Positions 1 to 48,014 of a DNA stretch of 64,000 bases are shown here, piece by piece. The stretch is taken from positions 15,438,001 to 15,502,000 of the forward strand of contig OZ249437.1 of NCBI GenBank assembly GCA_965235115.1, read 5' to 3'. The first letter of the stretch is position 1. Each line of letters starts with the position of its first letter. The position numbers and the translations under genes are program-made. The notes below the pieces were generated by a model that was given only the letters and a program-made list of their open reading frames with translations, was not told where the DNA came from and did no database searches. This DNA is from Laetmonice hystrix (taxonomy: Eukaryota).

Positions 1-553
1 TACAACTACTCCAACCGTTCACTCATTTCCCAAAGCTGCTCTTATCTTCCCCGAAACGAGAGGAGTCATTTTTTTTCGACTGTTTAGTTCGTGAAAGAGG
101 ATCATAGTAGCCGGGACCTTGGGGCCATGGAGAGTTTGAAGACTTCCTGTTCGAAAGTAACCTTGGAAGAGCAGACGTGTGAGAGGGTTTGAACGCATTC
201 CAGGGAGGAAAACTTCGAGGTAAACTTCAACCTCCAGCTTGAGGTATTGTGTCAACTAGACAACCAGGAACCAAATCTACAACAGCAATAGACAAAATCA
301 GTTTCAGACGCGTAAAATCCTAATTATAATCCAAAATCAAACCGTGGTTTGGTAAACTGGGGGGACGTTTGGCACCAGACCAGTTGGATGTCATCCAATT
401 TATTGGACGAAGCTTTTCTTCTATTCAGTCGTGTGCCTTTCCAAGCGTAATCCGTACACCTTGCCACTTCAAAGATACGCGAAAAAGTTGACATTTGAAA
501 GTAAACCGCTTAAAAACATATGGAAAACTGAGAAACATCAGTTTCTCAGTTTT

Positions 554-3036
554 CTGACTGAGTGCCTTCTCTCTGCTATCACTGTGGTCTGTTTGTGGTC
601 TGACTGAGTGCCTGTCTCTGCTATCACCGTGGTCTGTTTGTGGTCTGACTGAGTGCCTTCTCTCTGCTATCACTGTGGTCTGTTTGTGGTCTGACTGAGT
701 GCCTTCTCTCTGCTATCACTGTGGTCTGTTTGTGGTCTGACTGAGTGCCTGTCTCTATCACTGTGGTCTGTTTGTGGTCTGACTGAGCGCCTCCTCTCTG
801 CTATCACTGTGGTCTGTTTGTGGTCTGACTGAGTGCCTTCTCTCTGCTATCACTGTGGTCTGTTTGTGGTCTGACTGAGTGCCTCTCTCTGCTATCACTG
901 TGGTCTGTTTGTGGTCTGACTGAGTGCCTTATCTCTGCTATCACTGTGGTCTGTTTGTGGTCTGACTGAGTGCCTTATCTCTGCTATCACTGTGGACTGT
1001 TTGTGGTCTGACTGAGTGCCTTCTCTCTGCTATCACTGTGGTCTGTTTGTGGTCTGACTGAGTGCCTGTCTCTGCTATCACCGTGGTCTGTTTGTGGTCT
1101 GACTGAGTGCCTTCTCTCTGCTATCACTGTGGTCTGTTTGTGGTCTGACTGAGTGCCTCTCTCTGCTATCACTGTGGTCTGTTTGTGGTCTGACTGAGTG
1201 CCTGTCTCTATCACTGTGGTCTGTTTGTGGTCTGACTGAGCGCCTCCTCTCTGCTATCACTGTGGTCTGTTTGTGGTCTGACTGAGTGCCTTCTCTCTGC
1301 TATCACTGTGGTCTGTTTGTGGGATGACTGAGCCTCTTCTCTCTCCTATCACTGTGGTCTGTTTGTGGTCTGACTGAGTGCCTTCTCTCTGCTATCACTG
1401 TGGTCTGTTTGTGGTCTGACTGAGTGCCTCTCTCTATCACTGTGGTCTGTTTGTGGTCTGACTGAGCGTCTCTCTCTGCTATCACTGTGGTCTGTGTGTG
1501 GTCTGACTGAGTGCCTCTCTCTATCACTGTGGTCTGTTTGTGGTCTGACTGAGTGCCTGTCTCTATCACTGTGGTCTGTTTGTGGTCTGACTGAGCGCCT
1601 CCTCTCTGCTATCACTGTGGTCTGTTTGTGGTCTGACTGAGTGCCTTCTCTCTGCTATCACTGTGGTCTGTTTGTGGGATGACTGAGCCTCTTCTCTCTC
1701 CTATCACTGTGGTCTGTTTGTGGTCTGACTGAGTGCCTTCTCTCTGCTATCACTGTGGTCTGTTTGTGGTCTGACTGAGTGCCTCTCTCTATCACTGTGG
1801 TCTGTTTGTGGTCTGACTGAGTGCCTGTCTCTGCTATCACTGTGGTCTGTTTGTGGTCTGACTGAGTGCCTTCTCTCTGCTATCACTGTGGTCTGTTTGT
1901 GGTCTGACTGAGCGCCTTCTCTCTGCTATCACTGTGGTCTGTTTGTGGTCTGACTGAGTGCCTTCTCTCTGCTATCACTGTGGTCTGTTTGTGGTCTGAC
2001 TGAGTGCCTTATCTCTGCTATCACTGTGGTCTGTTTGTGGTCTGACTGAGTGCCTTCTCTCTGCTATCACTGTGGTCTGTTTGTGGTCTGACTGAGTGCC
2101 TTCTCTCTGCTATCACTGTGGTCTGTTTGTGGTCTGACTGAGTGCCTCTCTCTGCTATCACTGTGGTCTGTTTGTGGTCTGACTGAGTGCCTTCTCTCTG
2201 CTATCACTGTGGTCTGTTTGTGGTCTGACTGAGTGCCTGTCTCTGCTATCACTGTGGTTTGTTTGTGGTCTGACTAAGTGTCTCTCTCTGCTATCACTGT
2301 GGTCTGTTTGTGGTCTGACTGAGTGCCTGTCTCTGCTATCACTGTGGTCTGTTTGTGGTCTGACTGAGTGCCTTCTCTCTGCTATCACCGTGGTCTGTTT
2401 GTGGTCTGACTGAGTGCCTGTCTCTGCTATCCCTGTGGTCTGTTTGTGGTCTGACTGAGTGCCTGTCTCTGCTATCACCGTGGTCTGTTTGTGGTCTGAC
2501 CGAGTGCCTGTCTCTGCTATCACTGTGGTCTGTTTGTGGTCTGACTGAGTGCCTTCTCTCTGCTATCACTGTGGTCTGTTTGTGGTCTGACTGAGTGCCT
2601 GTCTCTGCTATCACTGTGGTCTGTTTGTGGTCTGACTGAGTGCCTTCTCTCTGCTATCACTGTGGTTTGTTTGTGGTCTGACTAAGTGTCTTATCTCTGC
2701 TATCACTGTGGTCTGTTTGTGGTCTGACTGAGTGCCTGTCTCTGCTATCACTGTGGTCTGTTTGTGGTCTGACTGAGTGCCTTCTCTCTGCTATCACCGT
2801 GGTCTGTTTGTGGTCTGACTGAGTGCCTTCTCTCTGCTATCACTGTGGTCTGTTTGTGGTCTGACTGAGTGCCTTCTCTCTGCTATCACTGTGGTCTGTT
2901 TGTGGTCTGACTGAGTGCCTCTCTCTATCACTGTGGTCTGTTTGTGGTCTGACTGAGTGCCTCTCTCTATCACTGTGGTCTGTTTGTGGTCTGACTGAGT
3001 GCCTCTCTCTATCACTGTGGCCTGTTTGTAGGATGA
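554..3036. repeat. Minisatellite array, 42-46 bp unit (consensus CTATCACTGTGGTCTGTTTGTGGTCTGACTGAGTGCCTTCTCTCTG), about 55 copies
   Basis: Head-to-tail repeats are directly visible; length variation is confined to the CT-rich end of the unit. Confidence 0.97.
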
Positions 3037-3153
3037 TTAAGCGGTAGATAAAGTGACCAAGTGACCGTTCGAGTAGATTGATGAACGTGAGAATAGTCGA
3101 GTTCCATTTACTGCAATGGTTCGGGACAAAGGCTCAGTAATACACAACCAGAA

Positions 3154-6100
3154 TAGTCCGGTGGCACAGGAGTAGAACCTTGCAATCTCTGGTTACAATC
3201 GTTTCTTTGCATTTTCCAGTAATTTAGACCATGTAGTTCAAGAATCCGTCGGGTGTAATGATTACCCCCGCTTGGCATTTTCAAAATTCAAGATGGCGGC
3301 CAAAATGGCCGCCAAATCACGTTTTTAGCTATAACTTTTGAACCATTCAACATAGAGTCCTGATTTTGGTGTCTAACATGGGGTTTTCGGTGTCGGGGAA
3401 TCCATTTACAATGTGAAAATATAATTTATTGACTCTTATGCATACTAATGGGGCCTACATTCAAGATGGCGGCCAAAATGGCCGCCAAATCACGCTTTGA
3501 GCTATAACTTTTGAACCATACAACATAGAGTCCTGATTCTGGTGTCTAACATGGGGTTTTGGGTGTCGGGGAATCCATTTATGGTGGTAAAATAATAATT
3601 TGATGACTCCTATGCCTGCTAATGGGGGCCTACATTCATGATGGCGGCCAAGATGGCGGCCAAATCACGTTTTTAGCTATAACTTTTGAACCATACAACA
3701 TAGAGGAGTCCTGATTCTGATATCTAACATAGGGTTTTGGGTGTCGGGGAATTCATTTATGGTGGTAAAATAATAATTTGATGACTCTTATGCATGCTAA
3801 TGGGGGGGGGGGGCTACATTCAAGATGGCGGCCAAATCACGTTTTGAGCTATACTTTTGAACCATATAACATAGAATCCCGATTTTGGTGTCTAACAAGG
3901 GATTTTGGGTGTCGTGGAATTCATTTATGGTGTTAAAATAATAATTTGATGACTCCTATGCATGCTAATGGGGCCTATACATTCAAGATAGCGGCCAAAT
4001 AACGTTTTGAGCTATAACTTTTGAACGATACAACATAGAATCCCGATTTTGGTGTCTAACATGGAGGGTTGAGTAATCAAGTAATCATTCCATCAGCCCC
4101 TATGATCCAACTGAAAGATGACAGCTAATTAAGGACCATTTACCAAGCAAAATTAGGATTATTCAGCAAAACTTTATATTTCTTTGAGCATTAAGACCAT
4201 GCGAAACACGTAAATTGAATAAGGTAGGAAATACGAACAGTAACAGGATGTAGCTAGACCAGATGATTGTCGGCAATTATTTATCCCATCTCCCACTATT
4301 ATAGAAAAAAATCCTAATCGACCTTTAGTCTGTCCCATATTTACTAATCTATTAGATTCATTGAATATGAATGAAATATTACTGAATAGGTTTCATCTGA
4401 GATGGAGTTTAGTGTCCAAAAAAATCAAAAATTGAATTTTTGCCTTTGGTGGAATTCGGACCCATGGTCTCCAGCCTTTAGGTGGGGCATGCTACCCACT
4501 CAGCTGTCGAGACTCACGGATAGGGTCGTGCTAAGGTTGTATTTCAAAAAGGGTGATGATGTCATGACACAAAAGGGTGACGTCACAGGAGAAAATGTTC
4601 ATAAAGTTGGCTCACCGGCCCACCCTTTTAAGCACACAACGTTTTATTAAGATCTGTTGGAGGCAAAAACAATCATTTTCTGACACTAAACTCCGTCTCA
4701 GTAGGCCTCGGCAGGGAAGACGTTATGTTTTTCACGTTTCTCATATTCTCTCCCTCTCTCTTTCGCCCCCTCTCCTCTTCCTTCTCTCCCCCTCTCTCTC
4801 AATGGTCATTTCTCATCAGTTTTAAAGCTATCTCGAATGAAATTTGCACTGAAGTTGTACTATAGTCTGACCAACACTCCATATCAAGCAATACGTCATG
4901 TAAGGGTTTTAAAACATACTAAAGACGTCCAAGTGGGTATTAAAGGGGCATGCTATGAAACACGTTTTTGAGGATTTCCGGCAATTATCCAACATGACTG
5001 TGTACTAGGGATCTAATTAAATAATCCTACCACAGCATTTTGTCCTCCGACGTGTTTTCGCTGCGTATGCAGCACAAGTAGATTCTATACGACCAAACCT
5101 ATAGATTTCTCCCGATAGCACATCTCCCGCCATAATTTGCCATAGACAACCTCCCATCAACCCATGTAATTGCATACTGTGTCACATCCTGCGTGTGCAC
5201 TCTCTGCGTGTGCTTAGTCACGTGCTTCGCTTAGTTGTAAACAATTCAGCAGTTGCACTCGATCGTCCGGCATCAGAATGCCACCCAAAAAATATTTTAC
5301 GAAATCGGTAGAAAAACGGGCAAGGGAGCTTCATAAACTTCGATTTCTCACACAAAATGAAACTGATAAGTCTGTCTTTGTTTACCAAGCAATATTAATG
5401 AAGGATCTCTTTATGAAAACAGCAAAAGTTCTTTGAAATACCGATTTTTCACGTTTCCTCATAATATGCCCCTTTAATATTTTCATGGAACCCATTCAGT
5501 AATACATGTATTTCATTCATATTCAACGAATCTAATAGATTAGTGTATGTCTATCTAAATTAAACTTGTAGGTCTAGCGCTTAATCATTAATGGGACAGA
5601 ATAAAGGTCGATTAAGAAACTTTAACTTCTTATCTATTATACAATGTAGTTGGAAATGGGATAAATCATCCGGTCTAGCTACATACTGTTACTGCTTGTA
5701 TTTTTTACCTTATTTAATTTACGTGTATCGCAAGGTCTTGATGCTCAAAGAAATATTAAATTTTGCTGAATATTCCTAATTTTGCTTGATAAATGGTCCT
5801 TAATTAGCTGTCATGGATTCCCCCGGCACTCAACCGCCCATGTTAGACACCAAAGTCAGGACTTTAAAGTTCAATGGTTCAAAAGTTATAGCTAAAAAAC
5901 GCGATTTGGCTGCCATCTTGGCGGCCATCTTGAATGTAGGCCCCCCAGTAACATGCATAGGACTCATTAAATTATTATTTTAACACCATAAATGGATTCC
6001 CCGACACCCAAAACCCCATGTTAGACACCAAAATCAGGACTCTATGTTGTATGGTTCTAAAGTTATAGCTAAAAACGTGATTTGGCCACCATCTTGGCCG

Positions 6101-6429
6101 CCATCTTGAATGTAGGCCCCCCATTAGCAGGCATAGGAGTCATCAAATTATTATTTTACCACCATAAATGGATTCCCCGACACCCAAAACCCCATGTTAG
6201 ACACCAAAATCAGGACTCTATGTTGAATGGTTCAAAAGTTATAGCTAAAAACGTGATTTGGCGGCCATTTTGGACGCCATCTTGAATTTTGAACATGCCA
6301 AGCGGGGGTAATCATTACACCCGACGGATTCTTAAACTACATGGTCTAAAGTACCGGAAAATGCAAAGAAACGATTGTAACCAGAGATTGCAAGGTTTTG
6401 ATTAAAAATGGGCTTCTGCCACCGGACTA
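3154..6429. mobile_element. Non-autonomous foldback DNA transposon with ~1-kb inverted arms carrying ~175-bp subterminal tandem repeats (Academ-like termini)
   Basis: Left end TAGTCCGGTGGCA (3154) is the reverse complement of right end TGCCACCGGACTA (6429), and GAA flanks both ends. Arms align in inverted orientation (about 3172-3322 with 6252-6400, and about 4120-4400 with 5480-5812). No transposase ORF. The superfamily call is inferred from the TAG..CTA termini and 3-bp TSD. Confidence 0.85.
4944..5473. mobile_element. Kolobok-like MITE nested in the spacer of the foldback element
   Basis: TTAA at 4940-4943 and 5474-5477; TIR AGGGGCATGCTATGA versus AGGGGCATATTATGA (13/15 match). Confidence 0.75.
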
Positions 6430-34900: not shown

Positions 34901-36699
34901 NNNNNNNNNNNNNNNNNNNNNNNNNNNNNNNNNNNNNNNNNNNNNNNNNNNNNNNNNNNNNNNNNNNNNNNNNNNNNNNNNNNNNNNNNNNNNNNNNNNN
35001 NNNNNNNNNNNNNNNNNNNNNNNNNNNNNNNNNNNNNNNNNNNNNNNNNNNNNNNNNNTTAACCCCGATGGCACCCCGGAAGGGGTCTTTAGTTCAATCA
35101 CCTGAAAGAATCCATTGAGCCCCCGTCCGCTGTCTCCCGACCTTTAGAAATCTATTGCCAGTGGATGCGTTGACAAAAGAAAACCACTGTACCAAACTGT
35201 GCATAAAACTCTATTACTCTACTTTCCGTTTCGGAGCTAATGAAATCAAACATACCAGAAAAGAATACTTTTCCTGAGAATCGTCGTGTAGAATCTATAG
35301 CTTGACAAAGAAATTTGTTCCAGGGTGTTTGACTCAGCAGTACAAGTGATTAGGAGAGTTTGAGGAACTAATTAAATTAATGAACATCCTACATTGGGAT
35401 GCCAACCTTGCATATCCACAGGATGTAACACGTAGTTTACACGTAGGCATAAAAGCAATTTATTCTTATTTGGACTAAGGTGTGTCAATGCCCGAGAGAT
35501 ACATTGGCATCTGAAATATACCGATAATTATTTATGAGAATTAATTTGTATGTGTGCGTGGGCTCGTATGATATCCGAGGATTTCTCTAGTGGAGTTAGT
35601 GAAAGGATGTATTACATCCAGACTTATTCAACCAGCTGATATATTTCAGTCTCATAACGAGAGATCCTAAAAGCCTGAGTGTTTACTCTTGTCCCTGGAG
35701 AGAGAGAGAGAGCATGGCGCACTTGTAGCGTACACCCTTTGGGTCGATCTGTCTGTGTATTTCAGTGCAGTTATAAAAACCCTTTCAAGGTTTTCTGCGC
35801 CAATCGTGGCCATATCCATAAATTAGCAGGACTGAAATGTGCCTGAAAAACTGAAAGACTTTCTCCCAAATGAAAAGAGCGTCGTTAAAAATATCTCATA
35901 GCTGCCTACTTCACTCACCTCCCTTCCATCCACTCCTCCACGGCTTCTTACACATCAGCTGGGAGAGCGGCAATAAAAAGATCTCATGGCTGCCTACTTC
36001 ACTCGCTGCCCTCGCATTAACTACTTCACTGCTTTCTACACATCAACTCGTGTAAAACCTAACATTTGAGGCCAACAGAGCAGGATATCTCCATTCAATG
36101 TACCCATGACTATCCATCCTATCGAAGCTAAGCAGTTATACCCTTGAAATCTTTTCCATGCACTGATAGCTACCCTCACTGTGTTGGGACAGATGAAAAC
36201 GATGAGCCGTCCCTGGCAGGTGATCTGTACACTGTCGGAAGTGATTGCTATCGAGCCTCTCATTAAATTCCTGGTCTGATCCGGAGGTTTGATCGTCATT
36301 AACTTTACCACAAGATAATAATTAATCACCACCTACAGCTAAGAATTATACAATGTGTATAAGACATGTCTTGTCAGTGTTTGATGCATACGAGCACCGG
36401 CTTCAGTGCTGACTTAATACCTTAAGCTCTATCGCGGGGGTAGGGTATAAGAACCTTTGTCATTTGTTCAAGAAGAGTATAGGGCATTGACTCTGCGTGA
36501 CACGATGCCTCCTTCATCATCACCCCTTGGGACTCACGGGGTACAATTATATAATTATAAGATCTCGCCCAGCCTAAGCAGTTTTTAGAAGCAATATTGC
36601 CCCTATAATTTTGGCTGACAGTGCCTAAATCACCAACTCACTGACCTTTAGACATCACTTCAAAATAATAAATTGATAACCATAACAATTTTAATTTAG

Positions 36700-37176
36700 T
36701 GTTATGTTGTGAACATGGAAGGGAAGACAGACTTGTTGTGTGCTGAGGTTTTATTCGTCACGATAGACAGTCGCGTCGTGCGTTCTCGTCTCTGTCTATC
36801 TCTCTCTCTCTTTCTATTACATTGTTGTACTATATATACTAAAATGCTTATCATTAGTCAGGTGATTACAAATGGGTCCTCTCTGTAGTTGTTTGCATAA
36901 GGAAACGTATGTGGTCATGAAAGATTGGAGCTGACATGGTGTGCTTACATTACTGCGGGAGGTGTTCTATCTTTCCTTAGATGTAATGATTATGCTTCAT
37001 TACACAAGAGCTCGATTACATGACAGTGGTATGTGTGTTTGGACTTGTTCCTTTGATAGTGTGGTTATCTCTAACCATGACTGAGAACAAAGGTCTGATA
37101 ACAGTGTCCAGGCATGTCCATGTTATCTGGTTGGTAAGTATAGTCTGTTGTGTAAAGTTCAGATAAATATACCACA
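36700..37176 (-). repeat. 3' LTR (477 bp)
   Basis: Identical to 45670-46172 except for a 24-bp indel and one TC unit. Confidence 0.96.
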
Positions 37177-37195
37177 TGCTCTTGGTTTCAAGAAA
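37177..37195 (-). promoter_or_regulatory. Candidate polypurine tract abutting the 3' LTR
   Basis: Minus strand reads ...TTGAAACCAAGAGCA immediately before the LTR TG. Purine-rich but imperfect. Confidence 0.55.
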
Positions 37196-38083
37196 AATTT
37201 ATGATAGTGAATTATTTCCTAAAAGGAATTTGTGAACTCTTAAATTTTTATCATCAGTCCATCGGTTGATTAAATATACCACATGCTCTTGGTTTAGCAT
37301 TATGATCGTAAATATAATTGAGCATAAATCCGAACTCTAATTGATAAAGTCACTTAAAATGTGATTGCGATAATTGGCAAAACGTCTGCTGGCAAGAGTC
37401 ACTCAAGGTTTGGAGTTTATGAGTCACTTATAGTTCGGGTTTGAGGTCCACCGTTTTACATCACTCTGTCATCCATCTATGGACGATCCCTGGTGACTGG
37501 ACTTGATCGTGAAACAGTCTCTGAGAGTGGTCGTTATTATCGAGAAGTGTTACTTGCGACCTCTACCACGGGATGACTTTTCATCCATTCGCACTGATTA
37601 TTTTGGTGCATCTTAATAAAATGTTGACTGCGATGTCCGCAAAGTAAAGACGTTTCACACACTTGCAGCACCCTCTTTATCGTTGATGGCACGTTTGGAG
37701 GGTGTTATTAACCTCGGTACTTGCTGTAGTTTTACGGCTTGCGTTGCTGCGCCCTCAACTGTGGCCTTCTTGGTCGGTGTTTCTGGTAGGTGCGTTTGGT
37801 GTTTCCGACATACACCAAGGGATGCATCTGGGGATGGCGTTTGGTGTATGTTTATGCTGATGGACTTGGCCTTCGTTGCTGTCTGTCGTTAGCCAGGAAG
37901 TCCATCAGGTTGCGCTTGATCTTCGATGATGGTTTTTGTTTCCACCGTTGCGTTCGTTACAGCGTTACAAACTTCTTGTGGGTTTGCGCTGAACTGCTGC
38001 TTCGGTGAGCGGTTCTGCGGTGTCATTCTCAGCTTGTTTAATTTTCATTTCTGTCTTCTCCTTCCGGCTTCAGGATCTTTTGT

Positions 38084-38194
38084 TCAGTGACTGTCTTCTG
38101 CTTCTGTTTTTCGCTTGTCTCTGCATTTAGACTCAGACCACAAAGCATTGATACATGCAAACAATATGAACACCAGATGGCTGAGAGCGGTCAT
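38084..38194 (-). CDS. Candidate 36-aa hydrophobic/basic micro-ORF (MTALSHLVFILFACINALWSESKCRDKRKTEAEDSH) behind a splice acceptor
   Basis: TTGTTTCTGCAG acceptor 2 nt before the ATG; hydrophobic stretch followed by KCRDKRK. Expression unproven. Confidence 0.3.
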   Translation of the reverse strand: MTALSHLVFILFACINALWSESKCRDKRKTEAEDSH

Positions 38195-39475
38195 GCCTGC
38201 AGAAACAACTTAACTGTGTGGAACATTTAGAGGTTATATATATATATATATGTATCTATAATTACCTTACAATTTGCTAAGTATAGTTCTATCTACGGTG
38301 TTGCTCGGCTCACAAACAGTTTTGAATCTACGAACTAGGGTACTCCTGCATTTTTAGTTTTACTTTGCCATACTTTATATGTTGCCTAATAAATATCCTG
38401 CCTTTCCATTGCAGTGTGGCAACTCTCACTTCCTGAATCTTCTATCGGACTGCTGGGTCCACTTAGTGCTATCTGGATTGTCTCCCCTGTGTTCTGTTTG
38501 GGTTTGAATCTCTGAGTTCGGGGAACCGGTTGGAAAATCCCGCTGGTATCGGTAAATTCCGAGTGACTCGAGACTTCGACCCAGTTCTCCCCTGATACTA
38601 GAATGACTTTCACCACTTTCGTTCGTCGGATCAATCTTTTGAACTTCCCGTACGAGCATAGTGGCAGTCTGACATAACTAGGAAACGTAAGTCTCCCTAT
38701 TTCGTCTGCTGATATAGTATGTACACTAAACTAACTGATAAATTGTTCTGCACATGACATATACTATCATTTAGTTGGGTAATCAACCATCAGGGTGTTA
38801 CCTGACGCTACTTAACGTCCATTGTGCGTCTGTGACATAGGTGTGCGCCATCGGACATGTGATGTCGATAACGCTGGCGGCTTTAAGTGTTGCCGATATG
38901 GCAACGTTTTGACAGTGTGTGTCCTGCGTATTCGTGCGTTTTATCTCGGATATGGTTACCTCATACCCACGATGCGAGTCTCTGTAAATATGACTCGGTT
39001 CAACATGAAAAGCATTAGCCAGCTTTGTTACATTGCATTGTGCAGCGATTCTCGATAGTTTGATAACCTTGGGGTGCACTGAAGTGTTGTTCAGTGAGGC
39101 ACAATAGTCTTACCCACTTGATGGTTATACATAATAATGAAGTTACGCACAATCCCACAGCAACTGAGACTTATCATTTTGGAGTCTAGACGGATTGATA
39201 GCTGCTGTGTAATTAAGCGTGTGTACGCCAAATGTGCTCCCACCACGGAGCGCGAGTGATCGAAGTAATGAGTTTGAGAATCGTGCATAGGTATTCTTGA
39301 GATGACGTCGTGAAACTGATATCACGTTAACTGTGTTATTGTCATCCCGGCCTAGTAGTGGCTGGCTGCGTTAGTGGTTGTGGTACCTACTACGCAATAC
39401 ATGTGTTATCATCATTAAACTAACTCCGCATATGCATTAGCTACTTTATATCCTAGAAACATTTATACATAACGC

Positions 39476-40438
39476 CTAAAATGCGTAAAACCGATGAGCA
39501 AACCTTTTCCTAGATCCGGTTATCCTCAGATCTGGGTCGTTATCCAACGCTTTTGCCCATGGCAGTACATAAGGATGGTCCGCTGTGCGCATCCAAAAGT
39601 TGTGATATTCCTCACTTGGCGACCTCAACAGTAGTTGTAGGGCTCCGTCTTTATACCTTGCTTTCTTGATCTCCAGTTCCATAGATTCCTTTGATATTTG
39701 TTCTGTCATTCTGAAAATCGTTGCCTTCGTCCTGTCCTTAAGTTTGGTAGGTGCTGCCAATCTGCCATTGGCTTCTGCGTGTTGTACCTGTAAGTTGATG
39801 CTCACTGGCTCCCCTTGAATTGTAAAGTTTAAGGCGTTTTGTGGCATGTTGGTGACCTTTTCCCCTTGCTCGTTAGTTACCTGTATGGTGGGTTTCTTTA
39901 GAATGGGTTTCAATTCGTTGACATGGTTGACTGTTCCAGTTTCTGTTCTGATCCACGCGACTTTCAGTCTGGCCACATGAAATACTCCATTTATCTGTTG
40001 GCCCTCGAGTGTTTGCAGAATAGCGTGGTTGCGGTCAAGCATGGATTTGATTGATAGTGGTCCAATGAAATCCATTCGGATTTTCTTAGAGTTTGTCTGT
40101 AAGGCGCTATGCGACGGTGACAGCAGATAGATAAGCATACCTTCTGTGAATATTGGTGGGTTTTTCACTTTCTTCAATTGCGTTTGCGCTTGTTTTGTTT
40201 GGTTCCTGGCATGTAAGTCCAGAACTGTCTTTGAAACCTTCTGCAGTCTCTCCTTCATTGACTCCACATAGTCTACGTAATTTCTGCTGATCGCATCTGC
40301 TGGTCCGCATTCGAACGCAGATGGTGGGTTCCTTAGATAAACCAAGTAATAGGGACTGTATCCACTTAATGATGGGCTGGCGAAAGAGTTCATAGCAAAT
40401 GCTACGGCATTGCAGAACAAGTGCCAGTTCTTCCCGTT
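39476..40438 (-). CDS. pol: Pol C-terminal segment (integrase C-terminus plus ~160-aa extension), in frame with pol beyond a premature TGA
   Basis: Same frame as 40439-44245; CLT*NGKNWHLFCNAVAFAMN continues the integrase consensus; GPY/F-like FIGPLSI and VFHVARLK motifs. Confidence 0.9.
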   Translation of the reverse strand, partial: NGKNWHLFCNAVAFAMNSFASPSLSGYSPYYLVYLRNPPSAFECGPADAISRNYVDYVESMKERLQKVSKTVLDLHARNQTKQAQTQLKKVKNPPIFTEGMLIYLLSPSHSALQTNSKKIRMDFIGPLSIKSMLDRNHAILQTLEGQQINGVFHVARLKVAWIRTETGTVNHVNELKPILKKPTIQVTNEQGEKVTNMPQNALNFTIQGEPVSINLQVQHAEANGRLAAPTKLKDRTKATIFRMTEQISKESMELEIKKARYKDGALQLLLRSPSEEYHNFWMRTADHPYVLPWAKALDNDPDLRITGSRKRFAHRFYAF

Positions 40439-43400
40439 TCAAGTAAGACAGGAGGTCAAGAAGCTTGATACTGTTCCCACATAACGTTCAGACTTGTTTG
40501 ACTTGTGGTTTCCCACAGACACAAATCTTTGGTCAACCTTTAGAGCGTTGAACACGTATGCGATGACTTGGTTGTTGAACTCTCTTCCCTCGTCGCAAAT
40601 GAACCTCTTGAACGGCCCATGTATAAGAATGCATTTTTGTAGGATCGCTTCAGCGACTGATGGCGCGTCCTTGCTTTGTAGTGGTACTAGAATTGTATAT
40701 CGGGTGACCGCGCATACTAGGACTAATATGTAGCGGTGTCTGCTATGTGATTCCGGCATTACTTTCAGGTCACAGTAAACTGTTTCCATTGGTGCGTATT
40801 CCGTTGGGATGTTCACCTCGAACGGTCTGTCGGCGTTTATGGGGTGTTTTCTTGTTTGACAGGTGTGACAAGCTTTGACGTAGTCAGTGATTCTTTGATA
40901 CAGCAATGGGAAGTAGTACTTTTTCTTGATGGTCAGTGCTACTCGGTTGATACCTTGATGGCACGCTAGCAGTGAGTCATGGTGCATTGAGATGATCTCG
41001 CTCACCATTGATCTTGGAACAGCTAGATTTACTCTGATTTCTTCTGTGTTCGGTTTCTGCGTGAATCTGAACAAGACTCTATCTATTAACACATAGTTTT
41101 CTGCTTCTAGTAGCACTTTCTTTGCTGCTTTCTTCGTGTTTGGTAATAGGCCCTCATCTAGGTATAAGTGAATGTCTTTAAAGTCTGGACAGCTTGCCTG
41201 TTCCTTTGCAATCTCCCTTTTGGTTTGTGGCAGATGATAGTCTCTTAATACCTTTTGTTTGATTCTCTTTAGTAGTTGGTTTATACTTGCTTGTTTTGGG
41301 GTCCGGCCAATCTTGATGTTTTGATCCGAAAGATTAGAAATGAGCTGAGTTGGCTGGCGGTAGAAATGGTCTGGTGGTGACGTATGGGTTTCGAAGATTT
41401 CTGTCTCACTTGTTTCAGGTGTTTGTGCTTCAATCGGGATGTGTTTTAATGGTGTTTGTGTGTCTACTAGTCGGTGTGTTTGAGCTTGCTCTCTTGTGTT
41501 GTATCTTGGGAATAACAGAGTCATATCGTTATTTACTATTGGCTCTTGTTGTTGCGTAGCGCGTTCGGTTGTAGCTTTGTTTGCCGTTGGTGTTGGGGTG
41601 TTATTTCTCACGCTTTTCCTGGCTTTATTTTCGGGTGATATGTCTGCTGGAGGTATTGGTGGCATAGCGATGTTGTTTCTTCGCGCCATGGACCTCGTGA
41701 TTGGGAATGCAATCGTGTCTTCCTGGTTTGTGTCGTCTACTGGCGGTGGGTTTCGCGACAAGTAGTCTGCGATAACTAGACTCGATCCCTTTTTGTAACC
41801 CACTTTTATGCAGTATCCACTCAACTTCTCAAGCAGCCTTTTTATCCTGTCCGACGTGGGCTCTGCCTTGGATTTCATTATCCTTGGGATGGCGGCGTGA
41901 TCTGTGTAACACTCAAAATGAGTGCCTTTTACCAGGTGTCTGAATGCTGTTACTGCTATCGTAAGACCTGTTAGCTCTAATTCTGTGATTCCATAGTTCG
42001 ATGCAGCTTTAGGAAGAGCTTTAGAGTAGTAGGCTATAAGCCTTTCTGATCCGCCCTGGACTTGCCACAGGCTCGCTCCTACTCCGATTTTTGAAGTGTC
42101 AGTGTACAGTCTGAAGAGTCCCTGGCTGCGTGGCATGGTGAGAATGGGTGATTCTTGTAAGAGTTTTATAATCTTGTCGTAATTATCCTGTGCTATTTGG
42201 TCCCATACAAAGTCGGCCTTCTTTGTTGCAATGGAGTGCAGCGGTTGAAGTAGAATTTGGAGATGAGGCAAGTACATGCTGAGATACGATACTTTGCCTA
42301 TGAATCCCTTCAACTTCCGTTTTGTTGTTGGAATCGGCAACTTCTGTATTGCTTCCGTTCTCTCCATGAGAGCTCGGATACATGGTTGTTTGTTATGTAT
42401 GATAATCTCATGGCCCATGTATGTGACTCGTTCTCTAAACAACTTGGCTTTTGCAGGTGAAATTTTGAGTCCGTATTTCTGTAGAACTGCAAGGATCGTT
42501 TCAACGTGTTGGTAGTGATCTTTGGTCCCTTTTGAGTAGATTATCAAATCATCCATGATTCCTATGCAAAACTGGTTGCCCTCTTGAATTTCGTCTAAGA
42601 TTCGGTTGATTCTGGTTTGGAACTCTGCTGGACTTATGTTAAGGCCCATTGGTAGTTTCTTGTAGAAGTATGTTTTTCCACCAAAGTATGAAGCAATTCC
42701 TGTGTATTGGCGGCATCTTTCTGATAGATTCAAACAATGATAGGCTTCTTTAAGATCTAGTACTGACAGTATTTGAGCTTGGGAGTGTCCTATTATCTGT
42801 AGCGTGTCTTTGATAAGAGGAAATGGCAGATTCCTCTTCACGATACGCTGGTTGAGATGTCGGAAATCGGTGACTAGTCGGTATGTCTTTGTGTCTTTCT
42901 TCCTGAGAAGCATAACTGGACTCGAGTACTGGGAGTGTCCTTCCTGCAGAATTCCCATCTTGACTAGTTTGTTAAGTTCTTTGTCAATGATTGGTTTTTC
43001 CGTCGCCGGAACGGTAAATGGCCTGATGTAGAACGGTTTTGTGTCGTTTAACTGAAAGTCGACTGTCATGTCGGTTTGGCCTACCTCTGAGTGTAAACTA
43101 AGCGCGTTTTTGTATTTATTTAACATTGTTCTGACTTTCATTTTTCCCTCCATGTCAAGTACACAGTGCTCAAATTTAATGTCTCTGTTTATAATTTCTT
43201 CGTCAAACATTTTAAGTCGGTCGTCTGTGTCTTCTAGAAAAGGGTATTTCTGTTTCTTATATTCGTACAGAGTGTCTCGCTCTAGTGGTTCTCCGTCTTG
43301 TCCGGTCTTATCTTTTATCGGTTCTGGTGTTGGTCTCTCCGAGCGCGCAGTGCATGCATAGTAGTGTACAGTGGTGCTTGCTGATGTTATCTCAGCGTGT

Positions 43401-44358
43401 GATACTGCCGTATACATGTTGGTCATTGCTCTTGGTTCCACAGTTGCCACGGGTTTATCTCGTCTAATCTTGATTGGCGTGTTTGATGGATTCCGTACGA
43501 CAATTGCGGCTGTTGAATTTCTGAACTGTACCAACATTAGCTTGGATGATAGGTTTTCGAGGAATTTTGTGGCTTTGATAAGAATGTTGGAATTCCTTAA
43601 AAAGTGTGGTAGTTTCCCCTGTATCGTGATGCTCCTTGTCTGATGGGGTTGTAGGATGGTATCACAAGATGGTTTTAGGAGAATGGAACTCGATTTAAAT
43701 TTCAGTCTGTGTGTCCTGAACTCAAGTTTGGCGTCGATTTCTCCCATCGACGGGCTTCCTAATACCATTGATATTCCCCCTAGGGTATTGACAACTAGTG
43801 CGGTCACTAGAAACTTGTGGTCTTGTATGTTAATAGTTACGTCAATAGCATGGTCCGTTGTTAGATATTCTCCGTTCCCTACCTTGAATCTCATCTGTTT
43901 GCATTGGCGTTTTGGTAGTTCTGACAAGTATCTCGACTCATTTATGGTATTAGCACAGATTAATGTGTGTGATGCTCCTGAATCAAAAAGTATTGTGATG
44001 GTTTCGCGATTCGGTAGTTTTGCTGATGTCATGTTTCTGGGATTAAGTTCGAGGCATATTGTTTCATTGTTGTTCTGGTTTTGTGCGCTGTTAACATGTA
44101 CTAATGATGCGTCTTCATTGGGATCAAATGTAGTCGACTGTTCGTGAACTTTAAGTACCGTCGTGGTTTCGTCGTCGGTTAACGTGTTGGTTCTAACCTC
44201 TAAACTATGTGCGTTATCCGTTTCTGAATTTGAGTTGGTTGGCAATCTAGTGGGTGTGGTTTTTTGTAATGGATGTGGTGAATTATGTGTTGTGGTGGAT
44301 TTGATTGTGTCTTTGGAAACAGACAGACTGGCGTCCTCTGGCTGTCTCCCCTCTAAAA
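40439..44358 (-). CDS. pol: Pol polyprotein (aspartic protease, RT, RNase H, integrase), in the -1 frame relative to gag and interrupted by TGA at 40439-40441
   Basis: Protease ILFDSGAS (D at ~43984); RT LDLKEAYH, LPMGLNISP and GIMDDL; RNase H YTDTS, ELELTG, YTDH and IADYLSR; integrase HH..H..CHTC and D(YCD)-D(ICDEG)-E(SERY). Confidence 0.96.
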
Positions 44359-44362
44359 ATCC
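44353..44362 (-). promoter_or_regulatory. Candidate -1 ribosomal frameshift site G GAT TTT TAG
   Basis: The pol frame is open from GGA TTT TTA GAG across the gag stop and is -1 to gag. Confidence 0.75.
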
Positions 44363-45417
44363 TGTTCCTGGCCGTGTTGTAGGTTATCTAGTTTGTTTGC
44401 TAACATATAACATTGTCTCCACGCATGTCCTTGTTTGTGACAGAAGTTACATATGATGTCCTGCCTATGGTTCCTATCGGCGTGTGGTGTTGCGTCTCTC
44501 TGTCTTGTTACCTTCTCAGTAGGCCTTTCTCGGCTCTTCGACTTATCTCGGCCGTCATATCGACCTCTGGACTCGTATCGCTCCCTCGATTGATATCTAC
44601 CTCGCGACTCGTGTTGGCCTCGGCCTTCGTGTCGGCCCCTACTCTCATGTCGGCCTCGGCTACGGCTGTCATACCGACTCCGGCTATCATAGCGGTTTCT
44701 ACCCTCATGTTTATTTGTGTTCCTGTAACGCCCTCTAGATTGGTCTCTGCTCCTATCTACCTGTTGTTGGTTCCCTACCATAGCCATCAATCTGTCCTGT
44801 CCTAGCGTTAGTTCCCTTACACAGTGTGTGAGGTGGTCTATTTCTGTCTTTTGGTTTGTTCTCTCCCCTTGTGTGCATAATATGTTTCCTGCTACCATCG
44901 GCTTTTCCCTCTGTAGATCAGCATAGCGCTGTGCCCTCGCTGTTAGATCGTTCAGTTGTACTGCCCCGCTCATTACCACGAATGTTTTCATCTCAAACGG
45001 TAACCCGTTCAGGAACTGTTCCCTGACTAGTTCTGGCCCCAGGTTCAGCCTCTCTGCTAACCTTCTTAGCTTGTTCGAGTATCGCTCCACGCTATCTGGT
45101 GGTGTCCACCTGAGCGACCTAAAAGCTTCCAAAGACGCTTCTCTTGACGTTAGTCCTGAGAAATATAGTGTGAAAGCATCCCTTAAGTTTGCAGGGTTAT
45201 TAAACTGCTTATTCGCGATCCATTCTCTGGCTTCACCACTGAGTGATAGTTTGAACTGGTTAACCTTGTTGTTATCGTCGTATTGATGCGCTATACAATA
45301 GTCCTCCCATTTCAACCAATGACTGTACGGGTTTGAATCACCTTCCCCTGTAAAAAGTCTGGGAAACAAATCGTGTAACCTTGGGAGATACCCATGTTGT
45401 TGATTCGGGTTGGCCAT
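44353..45417 (-). CDS. gag: Gag, 354 aa, with an R/S/G-rich hexapeptide tract and one CCHC zinc knuckle
   Basis: ATG-started ORF with CNFCHKQGHAWRQC near the C-terminus; lies between the PBS and pol. Confidence 0.95.
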   Translation of the reverse strand: MANPNQQHGYLPRLHDLFPRLFTGEGDSNPYSHWLKWEDYCIAHQYDDNNKVNQFKLSLSGEAREWIANKQFNNPANLRDAFTLYFSGLTSREASLEAFRSLRWTPPDSVERYSNKLRRLAERLNLGPELVREQFLNGLPFEMKTFVVMSGAVQLNDLTARAQRYADLQREKPMVAGNILCTQGERTNQKTEIDHLTHCVRELTLGQDRLMAMVGNQQQVDRSRDQSRGRYRNTNKHEGRNRYDSRSRYDSRSRGRHESRGRHEGRGQHESRGRYQSRERYESRGRYDGRDKSKSRERPTEKVTRQRDATPHADRNHRQDIICNFCHKQGHAWRQCYMLANKLDNLQHGQEQDF

Positions 45418-45659
45418 TGCCTTTCTTTGTTTTGTGAGCTTTGCACCGTCTATCGAACTACCTGTACGTTACAACTGTTAAACTTGTTTTGACTACTTGT
45501 TTTGTTTTGTTTTTCACCTTGCTTTTCGTCCACACGGTTATTGCTTACTGACATGAACCTCCGATGCCCTGGTTGAACATAAAGCTAGCACATATCAAAG
45601 AATGGGTCTTACCATTTTGTTGTCGTGCAGCTCATTGTCGTTCGAAGCAGATCCGGTTG

Positions 45660-45669
45660 TTCTCCACCA
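45660..45669 (-). promoter_or_regulatory. Primer-binding site TGGTGGAGAA (candidate tRNA-Ala primer)
   Basis: Abuts the 5' LTR; complementary to a tRNA 3' end UUCUCCACCA, as found in some animal tRNA-Ala(AGC). Confidence 0.8.
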
Positions 45670-46172
45670 TGTTATGTTGTGAACATGGAAGGGAAGACAG
45701 ACTTGTTGTGTGCTGAGGTTTTATTCGTCACGATAGACAGTCGCGTCGTGCGTTCTCGTCTCTGTCTATCTCTCTCTCTCTCTTTCTATTACATTGTTGT
45801 ACTATATATACTAAAATGCTTATCATTAGTCAGGTGATTACAAATGGGTCCTCTCTGTAGTGGAGGAGGGTGCATGATACTTATTTGTTTGCATAAGGAA
45901 ACGTATGTGGTCATGAAAGATTGGAGCTGACATGGTGTGCTTACATTACTGCGGGAGGTGTTCTATCTTTCCTTAGATGTAATGATTATGCTTCATTACA
46001 CAAGAGCTCGATTACATGACAGTGGTATGTGTGTTTGGACTTGTTCCTTTGATAGTGTGGTTATCTCTAACCATGACTGAGAACAAAGGTCTGATAACAG
46101 TGTCCAGGCATGTCCATGTTATCTGGTTGGTAAGTATAGTCTGTTGTGTAAAGTTCAGATAAATATACCACA
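45670..46172 (-). repeat. 5' LTR (503 bp)
   Basis: TG...CA on the minus strand; TATA-like TATATATA near 45805 and AATAAA near 45720. Confidence 0.96.
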
Positions 46173-46938
46173 TTAGAATGTCAGAATGTGGTCAAACTCT
46201 ACTTTCTTCAAAGAAGGTAGGCAAAATAAAAACCTCCAGGCGATTCGGAAATCTCCAGGAAATTAGGCAATGCGAGGGTTAAATAGCAAGTCACCGATGG
46301 TATAGTTAAACCCAGAATATCTTGACCTGCTCTCCCTTGTCCGTTCTCAGGGAGGTCTTATTAATTATAGACCGGCTTCATTATAAGTAAAACAAATGAT
46401 GGTCCTGGGGAAACCTGACATGAACCCGCTTAAATCCTGTCTGTCTGTGGTCGTGGTAAATAGCTGCATCCATCCCTAAATGTAGGTCCAAATGTACATG
46501 TATTATACATACGACTGCCTTTCTACGCTCGTCGGCGTGGTGGAAAGGTCACTGATAACGTCGACATGTAACGTCTGAATCATTGAATATAAAATGGCAC
46601 CTATAGTAATGGATCTGAACAGATCTTGGCCAACCGACAGCTAATAGACCTACGTATACTGCTGAATTCGCTGTGCTAGATGGGATAATCGACTAGCACT
46701 TCGGGGGAGGAACTCCATTTCATGCCACACGACTTCCAACACAAAGTTTCCTTGTAGATACTTTTATTTATCTACTGCCACGACCGTGACCATGCCAAGA
46801 AAAATCTCATTGAAATATCTTCAGGGGAGAGAACCCATAATGTCTGTGGATGATAATTATTCACGTTATATGCACAATTACCATGAGGCTTCAGGTGGAG
46901 GAAAGTAAAGTTCAGTAAAAGCCAACAGGACGACAAAC

Positions 46939-47872
46939 TGTCTGTATATTATTGAAGTATCCTGTAACGTTTGTTCAAGTGGCTGTATGTTATTGAAGTA
47001 TCCTGTAACGTTTGTTTAAGTGCCTGTATGTTATTGAAGTATCTTGTAACGTTTGTTCAAGTGTCTGTATGTTATTGAAGTATCCTGTAACGTTTGTTTA
47101 AGTGGCTGTATGTTATTGAAGTATCCTGTAACGTTTGTTCAAGTGTCTGTACGTGTATGTTATTGAAGTATCCCGTAATGTTTGTTCAAGTGTCTGTATG
47201 TTATTGAAGTATCCTGTAACGTTTGTTTAAGTGCCCGTATGTTATTGAAGTATCCTGTAACGTTTGTTCAAGTGTCTGTATCTTATTGAAGTATCTTGTA
47301 ACGTTTGTTTAAGTGGCTGTATGTTATTGAAGTATCTTGTAACGTTTGTTCAAGTGGCTGTATGTTATTGAAGTATCCTGTAACGTTTGTTTAAGTGCCC
47401 GTATGTTATTGAAGTATCCTGTAACGTTTGTTCAAGTGTCTGTATCTTATTGAAGTATCTTGTAACGTTTGTTCAAGTGGCTGTATGTTATTGAAGTATC
47501 CTGTAACGTTTGTTTAAGTGCCCGTATGTTATTGAAGTATCCTGTAACGTTTGTTCAAGTGGCTGTATGTTACTGAAGTATCCTGTAACGTTTGTTCAAG
47601 TGGCTGTATGTTATTGAAGTATCCTGTAACGTTTGTTCAAGTGTCTGTATCTTATTGAAGTATCTTGTAACGTTTGTTTAAGTGGCTGTATGTTATTGAA
47701 GTATCCTGTAACGTTTGTTCAAGTGGCTGTATGTTATTGAAGTATCCTGTAACGTTTGTTCAAGTGTCTGTATCTTATTGAAGTATCCTATAACGTTTGT
47801 TCAAGTGTCTGTATCTTATTGAAGTATCCTATAACGTTTGTTCAAGTGTCTGTATCTTATTGAAGCATCCTG
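46939..47872. repeat. Minisatellite, 41-bp unit (TGTATGTTATTGAAGTATCCTGTAACGTTTGTTCAAGTGGC), about 22 copies, running into the GPCR acceptor
   Basis: Direct tandem repeats; the last degenerate unit merges with TATATTTTACAG at 47873-47884. Confidence 0.95.
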
Positions 47873-47884
47873 TATATTTTACAG

Positions 47885-48014
47885 CCAAACAGTTGAACGG
47901 GACGGGTGTTACATCTCGACAGGTCACGCCAACCACGTGAATGACAAGTCGGCCGCCTACGCACGTCGGCGCCGGAAAATGGCGAGTGTTGACGACGACT
48001 CCACTCGGAAGCAG
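47885..48014 (+). CDS. GPCR exon: ICL3 up to the start of TM6
   Basis: TTTTACAG acceptor (phase 2, completing AA+C=Asn), CAG|GTATAT donor (phase 0); QTVERDG...ASVDDDSTRKQ joins VIKML. Confidence 0.88.

Follow-up and report, generated by a model that had tools for sequence, protein, structure and literature searches.

A candidate 36-residue membrane peptide downstream of pol in an env-less Ty3/gypsy retrotransposon of Laetmonice hystrix

A Ty3/gypsy element that carries gag and pol and lacks env raises the question of whether it makes a third product, and from which RNA. One such element lies on the minus strand, at 46172-36700, of the window, a 64,000-nt stretch of Laetmonice hystrix contig OZ249437.1. 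The initial annotation proposed that a leader ATG fused to a splice donor is joined, through a middle exon, to a short hydrophobic-basic frame downstream of pol, giving a 105-aa protein that might support envelope-independent transmission between cells. We re-examined each part of this model; the splice scores and ranks reported here come from a general-purpose metazoan matrix that was not trained on the present host.

The element is 9.5 kb long, young and multicopy. Its LTRs, target-site duplication, primer-binding site, gag and pol domains in the order protease, reverse transcriptase (RT), RNase H, then integrase identify it as a Ty3/gypsy LTR retrotransposon.

46173..46176, minus strand: target-site duplication CTAA, 4 nt (other copy 36696-36699)
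45670..46172, minus strand: 5' LTR, 503 nt, TGT...ACA
45658..45669, minus strand: primer-binding site starting TGGTGGAGA, tRNA-Ala-like by inference
45607..45615, minus strand: leader ATG fused to a candidate donor, ATG/GTAAGA; the intron would begin at 45612
44353..45417, minus strand: gag, with a Retrotrans_gag domain and a CCHC knuckle; preceded by 7 ATGs below 45790
39476..44383, minus strand: pol (protease, RT, RNase H, integrase)
36700..37176, minus strand: 3' LTR, 477 nt, with AATAAA inside at 36755

The 5' and 3' LTRs differ by no substitution and by two indels (24 and 2 nt), and an empty-site joint with 4 shared letters was present in two contig runs of one sample. Family copies are ~99.8% identical, and their agreement therefore shows no selection. 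In the stretch from pol to the 3' LTR there is no env glycoprotein ORF, the longest sense frames being 114 and 103 codons. The same interval holds the following features.

38197..38265, minus strand: candidate 69-nt intron, 26% GC with a TA run, donor AAG/GTAATT, no frame open across it
38084..38194, minus strand: 36-codon micro-ORF with a hydrophobic N-terminal half, 5 K/R in 15 residues and an acidic end
37655..38083, minus strand: continuation of the micro-ORF frame, 143 codons with stops, Thr/Pro/Lys-rich, weakly coding-like codon use

The strong post-pol acceptor reported initially is present: TTGTTTCTGCAG, whose last letter is at 38197, precedes GC and then the ATG at 38194, which opens MTALSHLVFILFACINALWSESKCRDKRKTEAEDSH-stop, a 36-aa frame whose stop ends at 38084. 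Located 1.28 kb past the pol stop, this acceptor ranks first among 169 post-pol AGs and second among 740 in the element. The micro-ORF lies in a constant part of the family, and two contig runs showed it unchanged in their collapsed family contigs. At the observed thresholds, the trio of acceptor, ATG within 3 codons and hydrophobic frame appeared in 0 of 500 block shuffles; with relaxed thresholds it appeared in 1 of 500 (for both block sizes) and in 4 of 1000 Markov shuffles. The host flank (107,548 nt) contained no trio at the observed thresholds and four at the relaxed ones, or 0.085 per 2.3 kb. Because the features were picked after inspection, the shuffle and flank figures overstate significance. 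An ATG-started hydrophobic ORF is not rare by itself, with 7 examples in the host flank (107.5 kb) and one in 12-14 of 500 shuffles. Among the first 18 micro-ORF codons, T occupies position 2 in 10, compared with 5 for position 1 and 6 for position 3.

The hydrophobic core spans 13 residues, with a best 19-mer Kyte-Doolittle (KD) value of 1.83 and an unweighted Hessa-type sum of +1.5. Six residues precede it. The charge is 0 before the core and +3 after it, a bias that fits a C-in orientation, and five K/R lie in SESKCRDKRKTEAED behind the hydrophobic segment, with a net tail charge of 0. Since the core comprises only 13 residues, it could also act as a signal peptide that is cleaved off, leaving no useful product.

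Two strong donors could serve the acceptor. In the leader, as first described, ACAAAATG/GTAAGA places an ATG at 45615-45613, 55 nt past the end of the 5' LTR (45670), and unspliced it opens a 6-codon uORF, MVRPIL-stop. Its donor is indeed strong (rank 3 of 423 GTs); an ATG-fused donor of equal strength occurred in 0.5% of 5000 leader shuffles, and the donor alone in 13%. In the 105-aa model the Kozak context attributed to this ATG loses its +4 G (ATG/TTT). Three further ATGs, at 45686, 45670 and 45635, precede it across the LTR end, primer-binding site and leader. The contig of a diverged relative spans the leader and differs across 45403-45682 by 26 letters and 9 gaps. The second donor, at 38265, had gone unremarked and is the top-scoring donor of the whole element; it lies 69 nt upstream of the acceptor, a placement matched in 1.9% of 5000 shuffles.

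With either donor the micro-ORF's own ATG is the start, because the direct leader splice reads ATG-GCA-TGA, as stated initially, overlapping that ATG, and the short intron leaves an in-frame TAA before it. HIV-1 vpu, with its minimal uORF, offers a parallel. Of the 25 strongest donors upstream, 14, the top three among them, left the own-ATG 36-aa ORF as the longest product. A leader-spliced RNA would carry four ATGs upstream of 38194, which would restrict translation; one of them opens an ORF of 28 codons that crosses the start out of frame.

We therefore tentatively prefer, at somewhat short of an even chance, a spliced last exon beginning at 38197 and translated from its own ATG into a 36-aa signal-anchor peptide. 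A subgenomic RNA would be spliced to the acceptor, ribosomes would gain access to ATG 38194, and the resulting 36 residues are predicted to enter the membrane of the ER through their hydrophobic N-terminal half, leaving the basic tail cytosolic. As an alternative to leader splicing, an internal TATA at 38379, upstream of the micro-ORF, could drive a short RNA. The peptide would likely be a minor accessory factor. What survives of the earlier interpretation is thus a non-random acceptor and hydrophobic micro-ORF at the third-gene position together with a strong leader donor, while the 105-aa product and the premise that sORF2 is spliced do not.

The main rival to the 36-aa peptide is that the locus is a vestige, what remains of a third gene that decayed or of a captured host gene start, with no working product. 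A TATA-like box, a non-coding exon, a short intron and an ATG with a signal peptide are the typical start of a secreted-protein gene, and this is the layout seen here with its candidate 69-nt intron. The micro-ORF frame, followed over 180 codons, has gag/pol-like codon use (log-odds 8.5, reached in 2.1% of 1000 best-of-three shuffles, as one of five segments tested) and is cut by stops common to the family contig. In the accessible parts of the literature, Env loss is described as frequent among fly gypsy elements (PMC13486581), and the "ancient errantiviruses" with env that occur in annelids, molluscs and cnidarians have Ala-type primer-binding sites similar to that of the present element (PMC13524379). 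Two annelid entries there measure 11.6-12.2 kb, against 9.5 kb and no env ORF here. However, stop codons are not depleted in the 180-codon frame (equalled by 37-50% of shuffles), long-dead sequence is unlikely to retain intact top-ranked splice signals, and searches of Pfam, of PDB and of 1.84 billion representatives yielded no env and no host homolog. We consider a vestige unlikely, though a serious contender.

No homolog emerged for any post-pol frame tested: seven read-through frames gave only sub-cutoff matches in Pfam, PDB gave none, and an Atlas search with the 103- and 114-aa frames was empty, as was Rfam. One post-pol frame, read through with X, had a single match, to a tandem repeat of 25 units; we discarded it as an artefact of summing over the repeats. 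A second frame had no homolog. The window contains no tRNA gene. Scans for relatives recovered one 2.8-kb metagenome contig with pol only; in viral sets, nothing in some scans and 12 distant 8-kb contigs, 24-28% identical, in another; in genomes, nothing in one scan and one 559-nt RT piece in another; and 2 distant RT matches in plasmids. The pattern of primer-binding site plus donor occurred at 117 viral-contig loci, 0 of them with a pol or gag match. Splice-matching joints were absent from three DNA-like contig runs of one sample, which is no evidence either way since contigs drop rare forms. Searches of the open literature turned up no account of this family, nor of any spliced micropeptide encoded by gypsy elements of spiralians.

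The micro-ORF might instead be reached from a donor inside gag.

45336..45344, minus strand: candidate phase-1 donor in gag, AAG/GTGATT; the intron would begin at 45341; rank 5

A single splice from 45341 to 38197, which the initial annotation did not mention, would use gag's own start and join 25 Gag codons to the micro-ORF, giving 62 aa. A matching-phase donor within the first 60 gag codons arose in 4.5% of 5000 synonymous shuffles, and the GGT that it uses is the rarest Gly codon (10 of 83). The product would have 32 residues ahead of the core, with a hydrophobic moment of 0.70-0.75 at residues 10-23, followed by the hydrophobic segment and basic tail in an sORF2/FAST-like layout, and in the available text Idefix-subclade env is likewise spliced from within gag (PMC12992720). 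Yet the 17-residue tail forms no amphipathic helix (moment 0.06-0.23), Gly2 and the MGxxxS/T motif are missing, no Tyr follows the segment and the membrane span is marginal. The donor also overlaps a capsid-like motif, which may explain it, and the internal ATG would be redundant. We regard this fusion as quite unlikely.

The resemblance to FAST-type fusogens deserves comment, as the initial annotation had compared the locus to spliced sORFs of MDG1-clade elements. In the accessible part of the preprint describing them, MDG1-group sORF2 lies upstream of gag on transcripts that show no sign of splicing; sORF2 generally is mostly upstream of gag, with 7 of 22 lepidopteran cases downstream of pol, and its products measure 63-107 aa, with a ~30-aa ectodomain, an amphipathic endodomain and, mostly, myristoylation (bioRxiv 10.1101/2025.03.14.642691). 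That screen demanded MGxxxS/T and a 10-50 aa ectodomain, although Stalker1/2 sORF2 also have no myristoylation motif (same source). Drosophila MDG1-group elements and the present one are both env-less Ty3/gypsy elements with a short ORF, one hydrophobic segment and at least three K/R within the 15 residues behind it (five here). They differ in that the present element offers spliced models only, no Gly2, a 17-aa tail lacking an amphipathic motif, and no detected homology. None of our models, which start MT, MA or MF, contains MGxxxS/T. The 62-, 105- and 197-aa models fall within the 60-210 aa of sORF2/FAST proteins and the 36-aa model does not; only the 62-aa model combines an ectodomain of 10-50 aa with an amphipathic motif (32 aa, moment 0.75), the 105-aa model having 75 residues before its core. 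The 36-aa peptide is thus probably not a FAST-type fusogen. That, in an env-less gypsy element of a spiralian, 25 Gag codons and the post-pol exon encode a non-myristoylated, FAST-like fusogen of 62 aa, with an amphipathic ectodomain of 30 residues, a membrane span and a basic patch, seems to us highly improbable; such a protein would let the element pass between cells without an envelope in a non-insect host, through splicing that has not been described for sORF2.

Multi-exon, C-terminally anchored proteins would require additional exons.

39114..39315, minus strand: middle exon of the 105-aa model, weak acceptor and fair donor (39113), not supported
38430..38705, minus strand: candidate extra exon of a ~197-aa chain, inside the 114-codon open frame 38386-38730

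The three-exon join is in phase and yields 105 aa, as originally computed, and its middle acceptor is as weak as was conceded (score -4.3, rank 221 of 740 AGs). The exon itself is at chance level, the model ranking 9th of 98 open, phase-consistent middle exons. GGTAAG occurs on the sense strand only at 45613 and 39114 (it is also present twice on the antisense strand), and when exon chains were searched for without guidance, the best chain terminated in the micro-ORF under each of three penalties, using donor 39113. Against this, its score was matched by 25, 8 and 15 of 150 shuffles, and the 197-aa chain was not clearly above shuffles. Both family differences in the middle exon (2 of 2) are non-synonymous in the 105-aa frame, codon use in the exon frames is not coding-like (log-odds 0.5 and 0.7), and the 114-aa frame, which has no homolog, gave a single-sequence structure model with a pLDDT of 34. 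One chain with a 35-nt intron (39113-39079) was dropped, this being below the minimum intron length, and an antisense spliced gene was rejected, as 29 of 60 shuffles score equally well. A five-exon accessory mRNA is known from Cer1, as far as the consulted text goes (PMC10309623). We find these multi-exon products very unlikely.

Equally slim is the chance that the 2.3 kb behind pol do not code and that acceptor and hydrophobic codons both stem from a patch rich in T on a strand rich in A: the post hoc choice of features, the four relaxed trios in the host flank and the 9.6% of shuffles with two open frames of at least 100 codons fit this, but composition-keeping block shuffles rarely regenerate the trio and the best donor stands at short-intron distance.

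Returning to the own-ATG peptide, third genes expressed from an RNA that is spliced, or that starts at an internal promoter, have precedents in the accessible texts (PMC12992720, PMC4402516, PMC10309623). Insect errantivirus env-F resembles the present layout in its leader or gag donor, post-pol acceptor and an exon opening with a hydrophobic segment, but the present element has no F-type ectodomain and 36 codons rather than a full glycoprotein (PMC12992720). Other invertebrate gypsy third genes are Oikopleura Tor env, C. elegans Cer1 CERV and the transmembrane ORF3s of rotifer Vesta, with an internal promoter, multiply spliced RNA or small transmembrane ORFs, respectively (PMC4402516, PMC10309623, PMC5408684). 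Their products are at least 210 aa where the texts give a length, against 36-62 aa here, and for Tor env and CERV there is evidence from RNA, whereas the present product is one prediction in one young family. If the micropeptide is made, it would strengthen the case that gypsy elements lacking env retain very small membrane accessory genes in non-insect hosts too, genes that screens based on ORF length and myristoylation overlook. One RT-PCR would distinguish the three candidate junctions.

Within pol, a single stop at 40439-40441 looks private to the present copy. The integrase tail matches Ty3 integrase 7q5b (E 5e-4). No Chromo domain matched pol in Pfam; the last pol piece, residues 256-299, scarcely covered by fold searches, is predicted to form three strands and a helix (pLDDT 83-95), and a chromodomain-like unit at the Pol C-terminus, such as a spiralian and cnidarian gypsy clade carries behind its integrase (PMC13524379), is possible on this model.

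The element is a minus-strand Ty3/gypsy retrotransposon (46172-36700). Its features and the repeats around it are as follows, positions being those of the window:

46172-45670, minus strand, 5' LTR
45417-44353, minus strand, gag
44383-39476, minus strand, pol (protease, RT, RNase H and integrase matches)
37176-36700, minus strand, 3' LTR
CTAA, 4 nt, target-site duplication flanking the element
3176-6397, 487-3048, 46821-47987 and 50307 onward, repeats in the host flanks

The LTRs show no substitutions and differ by two indels of 24 and 2 nt. A single stop interrupts pol at 40439-40441; the collapsed contig of the element family reads differently there, so the stop looks private to this copy. 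Since an empty-site joint was seen in two of three contig runs of one sample (X1 to X3), and long, near-identical contigs span the element in X1 and X2 at ~10x flank depth (a depth that does not equal copy number), we take the family to be young and probably present in many copies. The 2.3-kb post-pol region, from the pol end to the 3' LTR, is a constant part of it. Pol has 133 relatives at E 1e-50 or better (top identity 75%; 49% for the one from Patella caerulea, alone among those listed in having a species name), and we assign the element to a new gypsy family. An env identity was rejected: the post-pol region holds no long ORF, and searches of Pfam, PDB and representative sequences gave no F or gB match. 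The primer-binding site is like the Ala-type sites of env-bearing annelid elements in supplement 1 to PMC13524379, a likeness that may serve as a lead to a history of env loss. Invertebrate gypsy elements with spliced or small third genes are known (excerpts of PMC10309623 and PMC5408684).

The post-pol region contains a micro-ORF, a 36-codon hydrophobic frame (38194-38084) just behind a splice acceptor at 38197; all coordinates of the initial annotation proved correct on re-checking. Under a generic splice matrix, this acceptor took first place among the 169 post-pol AGs and second among all 740 of the element; the leader donor came third of 423. Post hoc chance tests asked how often a strong acceptor is followed by an ATG within three codons and a hydrophobic frame. 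At the observed thresholds none of 500 block shuffles that preserve composition reproduced this trio, nor did any site in 107,548 nt of host flank; relaxing the thresholds gave one shuffle of 500 and four flank sites. A hydrophobic ATG-ORF by itself was commoner, with seven in the same flanks. A chance origin of acceptor and micro-ORF is improbable; the last exon looks more real than not, and we take the unit to be real as a prediction from sequence. The micro-ORF's frame has the fewest stops (30, versus 40 and 48). The second-ranked post-pol acceptor, at 39476, falls on the pol stop codon; a splice to it from the leader ATG would yield no more than 10 codons, which share the micro-ORF's frame.

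We tentatively favor a subgenomic RNA entering the last exon at 38196 and yielding a 36-aa signal-anchor peptide, a reading drawn from signals and frames. Translation would begin at ATG 38194, reached by leaky scanning or past a mini-uORF; a short RNA from an internal promoter is the alternative template. The 13-residue core and its flanks would serve as the signal anchor, with the +3 charge behind the core holding the tail in the cytosol. Splicing from 14 of the 25 highest-scoring donors upstream, the best three among them, would keep the micro-ORF's own ATG as the start of the 36-aa product, a point also missed initially. A TATATA at 38379, likewise missed, makes an internal promoter possible; one has been demonstrated for Tor3b/4b env (PMC4402516, excerpt). 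Also overlooked was the element's top-scoring donor, AAG/GTAATT at 38265, 69 nt upstream of the acceptor, with which it bounds an AT-rich, intron-like stretch (1.9% of 5000 shuffles). None of the three frames upstream of this candidate intron is both open and equipped with a start, and removing the intron places an in-frame TAA before the micro-ORF ATG.

The unit could instead be a vestige, the stump of a decayed or captured gene with no working product, which we consider possible if rather doubtful. As a membrane span the hydrophobic segment is borderline, and it fits a cleavable signal peptide equally well, which favors the vestige. The micro-ORF's frame, as was also overlooked at first, runs on as far as 37655; its codon use is weakly coding-like (2.1% of 1000 best-of-three shuffles, for one segment of the five tested), and the stops in this extension are common to the family.

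A fusion to Gag is unlikely. A phase-1 donor at 45341 inside gag, another feature overlooked initially and arising in 4.5% of synonymous shuffles, would join the first 25 Gag codons to the micro-ORF as a 62-aa protein with 32 residues, including an amphipathic helix, ahead of the hydrophobic core; idefix-subclade env is likewise spliced from within gag (PMC12992720, excerpt). Only this model passes both the size and ectodomain criteria of the sORF2/FAST-like screen, as excerpted from bioRxiv 10.1101/2025.03.14.642691; the 36-aa model fails both and the 105-aa model discussed below fails on ectodomain length. All models carry the basic patch, all fail on myristoylation, and none has an amphipathic tail; they therefore fall outside the sORF2/FAST-like set as defined there. 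The 62-aa form could still work like such a protein, a fusogen reading being a long shot. According to the same excerpts, sORF2, a short ORF of Drosophila MDG1-group elements, lies upstream of gag, with 7 of 22 lepidopteran cases behind pol, and its transcripts are without evidence of splicing; the "similar spliced sORF" initially invoked for the MDG1 clade is therefore wrong.

The initial annotation had proposed a 105-aa product from three exons (45615-45613, 39315-39114 and 38196-38084). With a score of -4.3, the middle acceptor is 221st of the element's 740 AGs, and the model comes ninth of the 98 middle exons that stay open and in phase. In 38835-39194 the family contig departs from this copy at six points; both of those in the middle exon are non-synonymous in the 105-aa frame. 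Four of the six are synonymous in the micro-ORF's frame, a number too small to mean much. An unguided exon-chain search recovered donor 39113 again, together with an exon at 38705-38430 (or a shorter form), ending in the micro-ORF; started from the leader ATG, the chain gives a 197-aa model, its score equalled by shuffles in 25, 8 and 15 of 150 trials. Neither exon frame (39315-39114, 38705-38430) has gag/pol-like codon use, and a homolog search with both found none. Multi-exon forms of 105 or 197 aa ending in the micro-ORF seem improbable, and exactly the 105-aa product very much so.

X1's 6.7-kb family contig differs from this copy at 12 points, six of which cluster in the 360 nt of 38835-39194, suggesting relaxed constraint or a recombination tract. 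At 38707-38715, X1 and X2 have a contig break and X3 a loose end; in X2 a contig of 2,966 nt carries ~2.5 kb of foreign DNA joined to 38715-38266, and may stem from a truncated copy or from another element with the same 3' module. Short, lower-depth matches from at least one related family cover 41718-45360 and the LTRs, one of them in X1 skipping 3.2 kb internally (41718-44940). A 25-nt stretch at the purine-tract/LTR-start junction is duplicated (37295-37271 and 37188-37164, minus strand), the copy lying 107 nt upstream of the 3' LTR, and a related family's contig also aligns to 37155-37248. After the integrase SH3-like domain, the Pol C-terminus (~39670-39480, minus strand) is modeled with high pLDDT as three strands and a helix, chromodomain-like in predicted layout; a fold search gave no confirmation. 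Ahead of the gag start lie seven ATGs (45790-45417), and translation of gag itself would therefore call for reinitiation, shunting or internal entry. The host flanks contain long nested inverted repeats and several tandem arrays with units of 46, 41, 22, 50 and 75 nt.
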